From an uncultured delta proteobacterium (GTDB lineage: Bacteria > Desulfobacterota > Binatia > UBA9968), in the NCBI GenBank assembly GCA_963760795.1, contig CAVXEP010000001.1, positions 1 to 64,000 of the forward strand: a stretch of 64,000 nt of DNA, given 5' to 3'. Each line of letters begins with the position of its first letter. Within the stretch, counting starts at the first letter, position 1. A program made the translations under genes and the position numbers. Shown in pieces: positions 32,291 to 35,205 of this stretch. Under the pieces are notes generated by a model. That model did no database searches, was not told the origin of the DNA, and worked only from the letters and a program-made list of their open reading frames with translations.

Positions 32291-33439
32291 CTAGGCGCCG
32301 TGCCGTGGCGTGAGGGTTTCGAGCTTCGCTCTCAAGAGCTCCGGCTGGCCATGCTGCTTCGAGAACAACCGGTTTAGTTCCGTGGCATTGACTTCAGCCA
32401 AGGTGGGCGGATTCCAGCGCGGTTGTTGATCTTTGTCGATCAAGCGCGCGCGCACACCTTCGCGGAAGTCCGAGCGGGTGCAGAAATTGAGCGCCATGTC
32501 CCATTCGCGCAGGAAGACATCTTTCAATGGCAATCCTCGGCCGCCGGTGATCTGTTCGAAGATTGCCCATGCTGAGGTCGGCGAGCCGGCGCGGTAGCCG
32601 TGAATCGCGGCGCTCATCCATTCGTCGTCGCCCTGCCATCGGCGCATGGCGGCGTCGATGGCTACGATGTCCGGCTGCAGGGCTATTTCTTTGATGACGG
32701 AATGGCGCTTCATGACCTCGGATTGGTCTGGCTCGACAGCGTCCGCGAACTGCCGCAAATAGTCGCCCAATATTTCGCGGTCCTTTGCCATCTGCCGCGT
32801 CCATGGCAAATGAACTAGGCCGTCGAGAACTGCGCGCTTGTGCTCGGCGCGGATGAGCAGGTCGGCCATGCCGATGCTGACGGCGTCGGCGCCGTTGAAG
32901 CGAGCCGAGGTCAGACCCAAGAACATGCCCACTCCCTCCGGCATGCGATTCAAAAAATAACTGCCGCCGACATCGGGAAACAGGCCGATGGCGATCTCCG
33001 GCATCGCCATCTGGGTGCGCTCGGTGACGACGCGGCAAGTGGCGCCGTTCATGACGCCGATACCGCCGCCCATGGTGATACCGTCGGCCCAACAGAGCAG
33101 CGGTTTCGGGTAGCTGTGAATTAGATAATCGACGAAATACTCATGGGAGAAAAAATCGGCGCCGATTCGGATATCGGCACTGGCGTTCAGTTGCGTCACC
33201 AACGCCTTGACATCGCCGCCGGCGCAAAAGGCTTTTTCCGAATCTGCGTGCAGTACGACACAGACGATATCGGCGCGTTCGCGCCATTCCAGGAGTTTGC
33301 GCTCCAACTCCTGGAACATCTCCAACGTCAAGGCATTGAGCGCCCGTGGGTTGTTTGGCGATAGCAGGCCAATGGTGCCGGTTGCGGTTTGCTGCTCGGT
33401 GCTCGATACGGCGGCGGTCTGCGGGGCTTGCTCGGTCAT
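32291..33439 (-). CDS. Enoyl-CoA hydratase/isomerase family, 3-hydroxyisobutyryl-CoA hydrolase-like
   Basis: [51 protein letters not shown]. Confidence 0.88.
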
Positions 33440-33554
33440 GGCGGTCTACTCTCAAGTCAGCTGGAACAAAATTGTTTGACAATGGCCAGGGCTTCATCTT
33501 TTGTGTCCGGTCGGCGCCTGGGCGGTTTTGACACGGTATCTTAATTCGGTGGAA

Positions 33555-33593: not shown

Positions 33594-33609
33594 TGGCATA
33601 TTGATTGCT
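33594..33609 (+). promoter_or_regulatory. Sigma54 (-24/-12) promoter
   Basis: TGGCATATTGATTGCT: GG-N10-GC with TGGCA and TTGC cores. Confidence 0.65.
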
Positions 33610-33653
33610 GTACAGTGCAATCGAGCCGTAATTCTAGGACAGAGAGGGACAAC

Positions 33654-33890
33654 ATGGAAGCTATGGAAGCTGTGGAAGTATTGGAACCTGTCGTCACCAA
33701 CGAAGTCAGCGCAGTTTACGACATTCATTACGAAAACGCGACTTACCAGGCGGCGGTGTGCCACCGTTGCAACGCTAAGATGTTCCCGGCGGAACTGCTC
33801 GAAGCGCATATGGATCGCCACCAACTTAAAGATATGTTCCTCGAGAGCGAACTCAAGAAACTCCAGTACGCAATGAATCGAATGCGATAG
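33654..33890 (+). CDS. 78-aa protein with a classical C2H2 zinc-finger signature
   Basis: GAGGG RBS; CHRC-NAKMFPAELLEA-H-MDR-H equals C-x2-C-x12-H-x3-H; C-terminal amphipathic helix. Confidence 0.7.
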   Translation: MEAMEAVEVLEPVVTNEVSAVYDIHYENATYQAAVCHRCNAKMFPAELLEAHMDRHQLKDMFLESELKKLQYAMNRMR

Positions 33891-33902
33891 GCTGACGATT
33901 TC

Positions 33903-34007
33903 GCCGGCTCCGGCCGGCAACCTGTGTTCCCAGGCGCAGGCGTGGATTCCTCCTCGGTTCACGTTTGCGGTATCATCCCCAGGGTGTCCCCAATAGGGGG
34001 ACACCCT
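33903..34007 (+). ncRNA. Candidate 3'UTR structured RNA with an anti-SD loop
   Basis: Consecutive hairpins; 33936-33968 is a 13-bp stem (with G-U pairs) around loop CCTCCTC; 33981-34007 is an 11-bp perfect stem. Confidence 0.4.
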
Positions 34008-34167
34008 TCCCCCTAAAAAATCTCCCACATCTCAAGTTCGTTGCAATTGCGCCACTGCGTTGACTGATGCGCCGTTGGTTCGTTGATGCGTGTGCCGGCG
34101 TCTGTGGCCAGGCAAATTGACTTCAAAGTTTCGCCTTGTTAACCAATGATGTCCTGGGAGAATAGAA

Positions 34168-35205
34168 TTGAAAGCCGTTCGCATGCATGGTTACGGCGGC
34201 ACGGAGCAACTGTTTTACGAAAGCTGCGAGCCGCCGAAGCTAACCGAACCCAACGAAGTCATCGTTAAGCTCAAGGCCGCTGCGCTCAATCACATCGATA
34301 TCTGGAATCGTATGGGCGCGACGGGGATCGATATCGCGATGCCGCATATTCTCGGCGCCGATGGCGCCGGCGTCGTCGCCGAGACCGGCGCCAAAGTTGA
34401 AAACGTCAAGGTGGGCGACGCTGTCTGTCTCTATCCGGCCACCGGCTGCGGCCAGTGTGAGTTTTGCCGCACCGAGCGGGATTTTATGTGTATCCGGTTG
34501 CGCGTGCTCGGCGAGCGCTTCGAAGGCACCTACGCCCAGTATGTGAAGCTGCCGGGGCAAAACTGTTTTCCGATCCCCAACAGTTATTCATTCCATGAAG
34601 CCGCGGCGTTTCCGCTGGTGTTCATCACGTTGTGGCGCATGGCGATTACCAACGCGGCGCTTCAACCGGGCGAGACCATGCTGATTATCGGCATCGGCGG
34701 TGGAGTGGCGAGCGCAACTCTGCAAGTGGCCAAACAGATCGGCGCCCGGGTGATCGTCACCTCGGGCAGCGATGCCAAGCTCGAGCGCGCCAAGAGTCTC
34801 GGCGCCGATCACGGCGTCAATCATCACCGAGAGAACTTCGCCACGGCGGTGCAATCGCTAACCGATCGGCGCGGCGTCGATGTCGTGCTCGATTGCGTCG
34901 GCGGTGAAGTGTGGCGGCAGAGTCTGGCCTCGCTGGCGCGCGGCGGCAGGTTGGTCACCTGCGGCGCCACGGCGGGCGGCCAGCCGCAAGATGACATCGC
35001 GGCGATCGTTGCCAAGCAGTTGAAGATTTACGGCTCGACACTGGGCAGCCGCCGGGAATTTTATCAACTCATCAGTTTTCTCAATGCGACTAAGATCAAA
35101 CCGATAGTCGACAGCGTATTCCCGCTCCGTGAGGCGGCCAGCGCGCAACGCTATCTCGAAGCGGCGAAGCAGTTCGGTAAGGTGGTGTTGGAGATGCCGG
35201 ACTGA
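34168..35205 (+). CDS. Zinc-binding MDR dehydrogenase/quinone oxidoreductase
   Basis: AALNHID, PHILGADGAG, CGQCEFC..C, GIGGGVA, RGVDVV, FGKVVL. Confidence 0.88.
   Translation: MKAVRMHGYGGTEQLFYESCEPPKLTEPNEVIVKLKAAALNHIDIWNRMGATGIDIAMPHILGADGAGVVAETGAKVENVKVGDAVCLYPATGCGQCEFCRTERDFMCIRLRVLGERFEGTYAQYVKLPGQNCFPIPNSYSFHEAAAFPLVFITLWRMAITNAALQPGETMLIIGIGGGVASATLQVAKQIGARVIVTSGSDAKLERAKSLGADHGVNHHRENFATAVQSLTDRRGVDVVLDCVGGEVWRQSLASLARGGRLVTCGATAGGQPQDDIAAIVAKQLKIYGSTLGSRREFYQLISFLNATKIKPIVDSVFPLREAASAQRYLEAAKQFGKVVLEMPD

Follow-up and report, generated by a model that had tools for sequence, protein, structure and literature searches.

In RsaE/RoxS-type small RNAs (sRNAs) of Firmicutes, which act without Hfq, unpaired C-rich motifs of a short RNA with several hairpins presumably base-pair with G-rich ribosome-binding sites. 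In the icaR mRNA of Staphylococcus aureus, a C-rich motif of the 3′ untranslated region (3′UTR), similar to the anti-Shine-Dalgarno (anti-SD) sequence, pairs with the 5′UTR of the same message, and Qrr and GlmY are sigma54-dependent sRNAs. The closest described system is CcaF1-CcsR of Rhodobacter sphaeroides, where the gene of a small DUF1127 protein and anti-SD 'cuckoo' RNAs share one transcript driven by stress sigma factors, and where the RNAs are processed by RNase E from the 3′UTR and bound by CcaF1 (PMC8034643). There are four CcsR RNAs, each with two hairpins whose loops both carry CCUCCUCCC, and their 5′ ends lie at U-rich RNase E sites (PMC8034643). The present study concerns the gene of a small zinc-finger protein and the structured RNA that follows its stop codon in a 64,000-nt stretch of DNA (contig CAVXEP010000001.1, positions 1-64,000 of the forward strand, hereafter the window) from an uncultured bacterium of the class Binatia.

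That a functional RNA element exists at this locus is very likely. It is a real RNA family which, together with a sister family, neither of them described before, is tied to a new C2H2 protein family under sigma54 control in an uncultured soil lineage. With a probability of roughly 50%, we read the locus as a sigma54-induced transcript that encodes both a zinc-finger protein and a trans-acting anti-SD RNA, an analogue of CcaF1-CcsR which is unrelated to it by descent. The interpretation offered by the original prediction is thereby supported in part.

Like CcsR, the locus places a small protein gene before a structured RNA with a CCUCCUC-type loop, apparently on the same transcript and under an alternative sigma factor. 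Unlike CcsR, it has one RNA with one motif loop (that of the second hairpin, HP2; the loops of HP1 and HP3 differ) as opposed to four RNAs with two CCUCCUCCC loops each, a C2H2 finger in place of DUF1127, sigma54 in place of RpoHI/HII, and it belongs to Candidatus Binatia/Binatota (by the names of homologues) as opposed to Alphaproteobacteria; processing and binding by the co-encoded protein were shown for CcsR and are only proposed here. The Rfam model of the cuckoo family ar14 (RF02344, gathering score 58.8 bits) gave at best 14.5 bits (E = 2.2), a row that was absent in a second run, and no Rfam family matched at gathering score either in the window or in 20 orthologue and paralogue loci. 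Membership of a known RNA family was therefore rejected at that threshold, the ar14, blv_FSE and pRNA rows being sub-threshold noise. Since every defining feature that was tested fails (ar14 model, loop number, the DUF1127 ORF that adjoins RNAs of the CIN1 subgroup, and phylum), the locus is regarded as an analogue of CcaF1-CcsR and no member of it. The original prediction had called the system analogous but unrelated to the cuckoo RNAs, and the second half of that description holds; its statements on CcsR and on the DUF1127 protein CcaF1 likewise agree with PMC8034643.

The other systems resemble the locus in single traits. As in RsaE/RoxS, several unpaired C-rich motifs occupy loops and linkers of a short multi-hairpin RNA; unlike those sRNAs, which are stand-alone genes with their own promoters and are represented in Rfam, the window RNA is fused to a protein gene and has no Rfam match at gathering score. 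An anti-SD-like C-rich motif within the 3′UTR of a regulator's mRNA is shared with icaR, whereas pairing with the message's own 5′UTR finds no support here, and the multi-hairpin structure and a sister RNA that can occur without the gene exceed the icaR model. With Qrr and GlmY it has an enhancer-dependent sigma54 promoter in common, and one locus of the sister RNA has exactly their layout; however, there is no relation in sequence or structure (no Rfam match), and the window promoter reads through a protein gene first.

The three hairpins (HP1 to HP3; Table 1) are separated by C-rich linkers and stand behind the TAG stop codon of the finger gene (33888-33890). HP1 (GCCGGC-TCCG-GCCGGC) begins 12 nt past the stop codon. 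In HP2, a stem of 13 bp (33936-33948 with 33956-33968) that includes several G-U pairs closes the loop CCTCCTC. All 11 bp of HP3 are perfectly matched, and UCCCCCU and an A-run come after it. When 33888-34035 was folded as RNA of the + strand, the minimum free energy structure (-64.1 kcal/mol) contained all three hairpins, while shuffled controls had a mean of -45.7 kcal/mol (standard deviation (sd) 3.7; z = -5.03, 0 of 200 as stable). On the - strand HP2 was lost and z was only -2.41. The original prediction is confirmed in its placing of three hairpins at these positions, and the loss of HP2 fits its remark that the G-U pairs work on the + strand only. A repeat element was ruled out, as the 6.58-Mb, 35-contig genome contains the 145-nt stretch with its hairpins only once.

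Conservation was assessed in 90 genomes of one family, 58 of which contain a finger gene (this tally includes the unpublished genomes G041 and G022, on which no claim rests; locus L018, from G041, was excluded from all alignments). Regions past the stop codon were taken from 45 orthologue loci. HP3 arms were present in 38 and absent in seven (L037, L043, L046-L050), all of divergent genera with 44-71% protein identity. Alignment A1 comprised 37 sequences from nine genera, leaving out the divergent variant L044 and the contig-end locus L027. RNAalifold recovered HP2 and HP3 from it, and HP1 was added by hand. Standard pairs filled 93.4% of the paired cells of A1, compared with 88.1% after shuffling (reached in 0 of 500 shuffles) and 37-52% with the 3′ partners slid, and 12 pairs had changes on both sides. 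We also fitted to the model 72 distinct metagenome sequences (alignment A5), found with a search pattern in which CCTCCTC and HP3 were fixed; here 95.4% were paired against 91.0% in shuffles, with 13 doubly changed pairs.

Compensatory changes affected four of the six HP1 pairs in A1 and five of six in A5, and HP2 covaried at 5/12 and 7/12 pairs, respectively; its two clearest pairs were composed of UA 12, GC 11, AU 3 and CG 1 in one case and of UA 22 and CG 12 in the other. The hairpins are no product of chance, since the same arrangement is found again, with compensatory changes, downstream of orthologous genes. G-U pairs in A1 consistently place G on the 5′ side and work only on the + strand, which identifies this as the strand of the RNA. 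In HP3, four of 11 pairs varied on neither side, compensatory changes occurred in only three sequences and changes to G-U were rare. RNA columns were more conserved than synonymous sites of the gene (non-majority fraction 0.22 vs 0.41), and conservation ended past the tail.

The loop heptamer CCUCCUC, which has the same sequence as the anti-SD end of 16S rRNA, stood in HP2 of 33 of the 37 orthologues in A1, so that the loop and the covarying stem are both retained behind orthologous genes, and the original prediction survives the conservation check that it had set for itself. It was predicted to be unpaired with a mean probability of 0.96 (34 sequences carrying the heptamer, of which L034 carries it in HP3). 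At three loci of one genus, whose HP2 is without CCTCCTC, it is the HP3 loop that is C/U-rich, and at one of them (L034) CCUCCUC can be read across the junction of stem and loop; this is suggestive, but amounts to a single evolutionary event. C-rich motifs had a density of 4.66 in the 120 nt past the gene, compared with 0.46 (sd 0.95) after 3685 long open reading frames (ORFs) of the genome. Relatives of the finger gene without either of the two RNAs described below had 1.1 C-motifs per 120 nt against the same background of 0.46, a difference that is not convincing.

HP3 is probably a 3′-end or terminator hairpin, and possibly also a protein-binding site. In the window it is followed by UUCCCCCUAAAAAA, and a terminator scan, which looks for a G+C hairpin with a U-tract, made no intrinsic terminator call; some orthologues (L016, L039, L044) do have a U-tract after HP3. 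Overall, U-tract terminators were not enriched in this region (30 vs 27, sd 4.5). Within 33995-34021 the G-run of the HP3 3′ arm could instead pair with the CCCCC of the tail (GGGGGAC..CCCCCU), an arrangement matched by the sub-threshold blv_FSE row (18.6 bits) and perhaps an alternative conformation of the 3′ end. HP3 was rejected as a specific signature: the palindrome (GGGTGTCCCC, 3-12 nt, GGGGACACCC) occurs at 120 or more loci of unrelated genomes, many of them Actinobacteria such as Streptomyces and Micromonospora. Such loci probably represent commonplace hairpins rich in G+C, the count being given without a proper null.

Linkage of RNA to gene was examined with a covariance model, R1, built from A1. 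It gave a single full-length match in its own genome (33891-34020) and 38 strong full-length matches in the 90 genomes of the family (37 in 88 without G041 and G022), plus one weak match. Each of the 38 strong matches started no more than a few bases from the finger gene's stop codon, with one copy per genome; additional 'second' matches were the HP3 palindrome read on the opposite strand. None was found in 142 genomes from other families of the class. A metagenome scan for CCTCCTC, a gap and both HP3 arms returned 83 stretches, 80 of which were examined. R1 matched 79 of them. Of 78 informative loci, 77 had the finger gene upstream in the same orientation, and two further loci were cut by the contig end. 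The remaining stretch, L232, is an unrelated chance match without an R1 match. Its AT-richer contig holds several copies of GGGTGTCCC/GGGACACCC within 90 nt beside a gene start (oriented positions ~450-540), which may be a repeat element of another organism.

Many genomes of the family hold a second finger gene with ~40% identity to the first; the window's own genome has none. Behind this paralogue, in the window's genus, lies a different RNA (type B, the window RNA being type A) with a hairpin CUUCCCC/GGGGAAG, a linker CUC(C)UCCCC, a further hairpin of 13-14 bp with CCCCC in its loop, and a tail CCCCUCCC. The long stem covaries strongly (94.1% paired vs 84.7% shuffled, 11 pairs with double changes). 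A second covariance model for type B, R2, matched 24 of the 30 genomes examined from this genus and none of 59 from other genera, and R1 and R2 do not detect each other's loci. R2 matches adjoined the paralogue in 23 of 25 cases. One of the other two was at a contig end, and one was in G053, a 96% complete genome in which no paralogue was found. There the type-B RNA begins 17 nt past a TGGCAC-N5-TTGCT motif, and the 500 nt upstream of it hold no finger ORF; to judge from this layout, it is effectively a stand-alone sigma54-driven sRNA gene. Since it persists in G053 without a finger gene, at least the type-B RNA is kept for its own sake, which argues that such RNAs have a function of their own beyond that of a tail to the finger mRNA. 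In one other genus (loci L051-L070 and L198-L217), the paralogue is followed by a plain G+C hairpin GAACTGCGGCA...TGCCGCAGTTC and no type-B RNA, indicating that the C-rich type-B RNA is a genus-level acquisition or loss.

The protein encoded ahead of the type-A RNA has the motif C-x2-C-x12-H-x3-H with ligands C36, C39, H52 and H56, a variable, acidic N-terminus and a conserved, basic C-terminal helix. A large protein collection contained 135 homologues, most of 66 amino acids (66-78 among the RNA-linked genes), labelled at source as hypothetical or, wrongly, as 'ribosomal protein S27AE'. Those with an organism name belong to Candidatus Binatia, and a protein atlas gives Candidatus Binatota. 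Among 32 aligned homologues, both Cys, both His and the helix ELKKLQ..M.RMR were invariant or nearly so. Codons of the 37 orthologues varied far more at their third position (0.41) than at the first two (0.13 and 0.08), so the gene is a real coding gene, and the small zinc-finger protein of the original prediction is indeed a conserved C2H2-type finger.

An AlphaFold2 model (predicted local distance difference test score 79.5) shows a disordered N-terminus, a beta-hairpin and a 30-residue helix bearing both His. Foldseek returned no match at E ≤ 0.001, its weak top rows being classical C2H2 fingers, and an independent structure search (VIA-align) reached a best Z of 3.9; the model would carry the fold assignment no further than a C2H2-like finger. 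No fitting family was found in Pfam or NCBIfam, and the Pfam scan returned no zf-C2H2 at E up to 0.1 and no DUF1127. Only language-model neighbours of the protein carry zf-C2H2 domains, which is a lead. A profile search of 1.84 billion representatives returned only 87 proteins at E ≤ 0.001, nearly all of 50-130 amino acids, and in a sample of the class the protein occurred in 11 of 25 genomes of the window's own family and in none of 275 genomes of 19 other families. Judged by sequence, this is a new family of tiny bacterial C2H2 zinc-finger proteins. Elsewhere in the same genome, contig C15 (~145199-145412, outside the window) has a third sigma54-type motif, TGGCACCATGGTTGCT, followed by a 43-residue ORF with C-x2-C...H-x3-H but without the C-terminal helix and with no C-rich RNA behind it, apparently a truncated or divergent relative of the finger gene.

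The sigma54-type promoter motif ends 44 nt ahead of the ATG, with a predicted transcription start near 33620. TGGCAY-N5-TTGCW precedes the gene in 39 of the 46 orthologue loci and in 18 of the 20 paralogue loci, in line with the claim of the original prediction that the gene is sigma54-driven. The genome contains 45 copies of the strict motif, where a uniform-composition estimate predicts ~3, and 26 strong sigma54-activator domains are present, the nearest at ~89.5 kb on the same contig and none adjoining the locus. By these counts the lineage is rich in sigma54 regulation. A 10-mer of the translation-initiation region, GAGAGGGACA, occurs only three times in the genome. Contigs assembled from RNA libraries (soil, rhizosphere and other; four studies) contain parts of the locus, and in three of the studies they run across the stop codon and into the RNA (X1 33688-33978, X2 33777-33950, X4 33675-34016). 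The X4 contig reaches 9 nt beyond HP3, the X5 contig ends only 7 nt past the stop codon and does not bridge it, and one X2 contig starting at 33600 is chimeric. The small shares of 20 other runs count as no evidence. Having a depth of 2-5 and no strand or end information, and with DNA carry-over possible, the bridging contigs are compatible with co-transcription.

Table 1. Features of the finger-gene locus and of the stand-alone sister RNA (window coordinates unless another locus is named)
Feature	Position	Strand	Basis and remarks
Conserved upstream element (ACAAAAnTGT...TGACA-like)	33465-33485	.	conserved block in promoter-anchored orthologue upstream regions; ~110-130 nt above the -24 box
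Sigma54-type promoter, -24 TGGCAT / -12 TTGCT, 5-nt spacer	33594-33609	+	sequence, conserved in relatives
Translation-initiation region GACAGAGAGGGACAAC, 16 nt directly before ATG	33638-33653	+	near-invariant across genera
Gene of 78-residue C2H2-type zinc-finger protein	33654-33890	+	ORF translation, homologues, alignment
HP1, 6-bp G+C hairpin, UCCG loop	33903-33918	+	fold; compensatory changes; optional, absent in some genera (e.g. L030-L036)
Linker 1 with conserved single-stranded GUGUUCCC at 33924-33931	33919-33935	+	near-invariant columns in A1; candidate processing site or second pairing seed
HP2 presenting the anti-SD heptamer CCUCCUC (33949-33955)	33936-33968	+	fold and covariation
Linker 2, C-rich (..AUCAUCCCC)	33969-33980	+	CCCC columns conserved in A1
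HP3, arms GGGUGUCCCC / GGGGACACCC, variable loop of ~3-10 nt	33981-34007	+	fold; stem sequence almost invariant
Pyrimidine-rich tail UCCCCCU, then A-run; end of R1 match	34008-34020	+	conserved as CCCUUCCCC/CCCCUCCCC + AAAA
Stand-alone type-B RNA of G053	L222 (G053:C103:4924-5523), RNA ~503-590, promoter motif 471-486 of L222		

The neighbourhood is syntenic. In 23 of 29 loci the finger gene is preceded by a divergent gene for an ECH_2-type enoyl-CoA hydratase/hydrolase (32291-33439, -), and in 17 of 29 it is followed by a gene resembling those of zinc-type alcohol dehydrogenases/quinone reductases (34168-35205, +); these neighbours hint at a link to acyl-CoA or branched-chain catabolism. The element at 33465-33485 is a candidate enhancer site for a sigma54 activator, or else a candidate promoter or operator of the divergent hydratase gene. 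The RNA was also considered as a leader of the downstream dehydrogenase gene, and this was ruled out because it is retained at loci from which that gene is missing (e.g. L010, L014, L015, L030-L033).

The mechanism that we propose starts at the sigma54 promoter, which would drive a transcript of ~400 nt encoding the finger protein and the 3′ structured RNA, so that the firing of a sigma54 activator would make the cell produce protein and RNA together. The RNA (~100-130 nt, 33891-34020) could act as the 3′ part of the mRNA or after cleavage in the GUGUUCCC linker, a candidate processing site by its likeness to the U-rich RNase E sites at the CcsR 5′ ends (PMC8034643); an RNase E/G gene is present in the genome. 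The complement of linker 1 has 13 other sites in the genome with up to two mismatches, none obviously at a start codon. Through its CCUCCUC loop, HP2 would pair with GAGGAGG-type ribosome-binding sites of other mRNAs and lower their translation; the original prediction had put forward many GGAGG-led transporter or catabolic mRNAs as possible targets. The co-encoded finger protein may bind the RNA or assist in its maturation, HP3 with its invariant sequence being a possible contact site, in a lineage without detectable Hfq: PF17209 was found in none of 31 genomes from the genus, among which ten are of high quality (a tally that includes the unpublished G041). Trans action, anti-SD targeting, processing and the role of the protein are steps that we infer. 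A more far-reaching and distinctly tentative proposal, which we hold to be possible but doubtful, is a lineage-specific, Hfq-independent module in which a dedicated C2H2 RNA-binding protein and its anti-SD sRNA share one sigma54 transcript. Here the protein would recognise the invariant hairpin and help to mature or deploy the RNA, and the module would have been duplicated into two orthogonal pairs (A and B), one of which can lose the protein gene and remain as an sRNA with a sigma54 promoter of its own.

Several observations weigh against a trans-acting anti-SD RNA. A 7-nt seed is not specific, given that GAGGAGG has 464 sites in the genome and matches 119 candidate start regions, and no target was identified. 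No discrete short RNA, 5′ end or 3′ end was seen among the assembled contigs, which have a depth of 2-5 only; 34017-34350 was left uncovered by the contigs of four runs and contig ends differed between runs, giving no evidence for a 3′ end. The tail behind HP3 is C-rich, unlike the U-tract of an intrinsic terminator. The HP3 stem is conserved as sequence, beyond what pairing demands, and this hints at a protein or alternative-pairing role outside the model. As for the comparative data, the metagenome set was chosen by a pattern that fixed CCTCCTC and HP3, and the related genomes are kin, so that counts overstate independence. Finally, the type-A RNA was never seen without its gene, an association that fits a purely cis-acting 3′UTR as well. 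In that case the hairpins would stabilise and terminate the finger mRNA, and the C-rich and anti-SD motifs would fold back on its own ribosome-binding region and tune translation. The initiation region of the gene is indeed near-invariant and purine-rich (GACAGAGAGGGACAA) and has GGGACA in common with the HP3 3′ arm, so that the HP3 5′ arm could pair with it over 6 bp, and the terminator-like U-tracts behind HP3 in some orthologues would agree with a 3′-end function. However, HP3 is much more stable than this 6-bp alternative, and the gene's own SD sequence (GAGAGGGA) is not the complement of CCUCCUC. Duplex prediction, tried on ten orthologues (the tenth had no recognisable UTR), gave 5′UTR-3′RNA energies within ~1 sd of shuffles in eight of nine and 2 sd in the ninth (L008), and pairing of the 3′ RNA with its own 5′UTR was rejected at these near-shuffled levels. 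A terminator or stabiliser has no need of a conserved loop sequence, and the paralogue's RNA persists in G053 without a finger gene; on balance, a purely cis-acting 3′UTR seems unlikely.

An RNA that serves as ligand, sponge or assembly platform of the finger protein, or of another protein binding C-rich RNA, would act through autoregulation or titration and would pair with no mRNA. In both modules the stem of one hairpin is conserved as sequence and not just as pairing, HP3 with GGGUGUCCCC in type A and CUUCCCC/GGGGAAG in type B, and such stems look like a sequence-specific binding site; moreover, the RNA types track the protein paralogues, the protein combines a C2H2 finger with a basic helix, and Hfq was absent from the genomes of the genus that were searched. 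On the other hand, the protein falls into no recognised RNA-binding family, G053 retains RNA B without protein B, and the exposed CCUCCUC is better explained by base-pairing, so we consider this explanation improbable. Much further down the scale stands a role in DNA or in termination only, with HP3 as the palindromic operator of a dimeric DNA-binding protein, or with the C-rich stretches as a Rho-loading (rut) region ahead of the dehydrogenase gene. HP3 is a perfect palindrome of conserved sequence, Rho prefers C-rich, G-poor RNA, and a dehydrogenase gene of the same direction does follow in 17 of the 29 loci. Yet the HP3 loop varies between ~3 and 10 nt, G-U pairs would turn into A-C mismatches on the opposite strand, the covariation in HP1 and HP2 is that of an RNA, and the RNA is kept where no dehydrogenase gene follows. 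As the exact HP3 pattern is met at 120 or more unrelated loci, HP3 is no specific operator, and we regard this last explanation as very unlikely.

In kind, the design of an anti-SD regulatory RNA co-encoded with a small protein is known, and past structure and linkage its mechanism at this locus is one that we infer. No paper combining 'Binatia' with 'small RNA' was found in a full-text literature search, and among the papers listed by a search on anti-SD sequences, sRNAs, zinc fingers and sigma-54, none dealt with such a module by title or abstract. To our knowledge, regulatory RNAs of uncultured soil phyla are almost unknown, and in this study comparison by itself has sufficed to define two new RNA families supported by covariation, a new protein family and the sigma54 control that they have in common. 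Parts of the locus are present in assemblies of soil and rhizosphere RNA libraries, so public raw reads could serve as a direct test of the proposed transcript. If the finger protein works with the RNA, the CcaF1-CcsR principle of a small RNA-binding protein encoded together with its anti-SD sRNA would have evolved independently for a second time at this locus, which would also offer a possible answer to how a lineage without Hfq runs its sRNA regulation.

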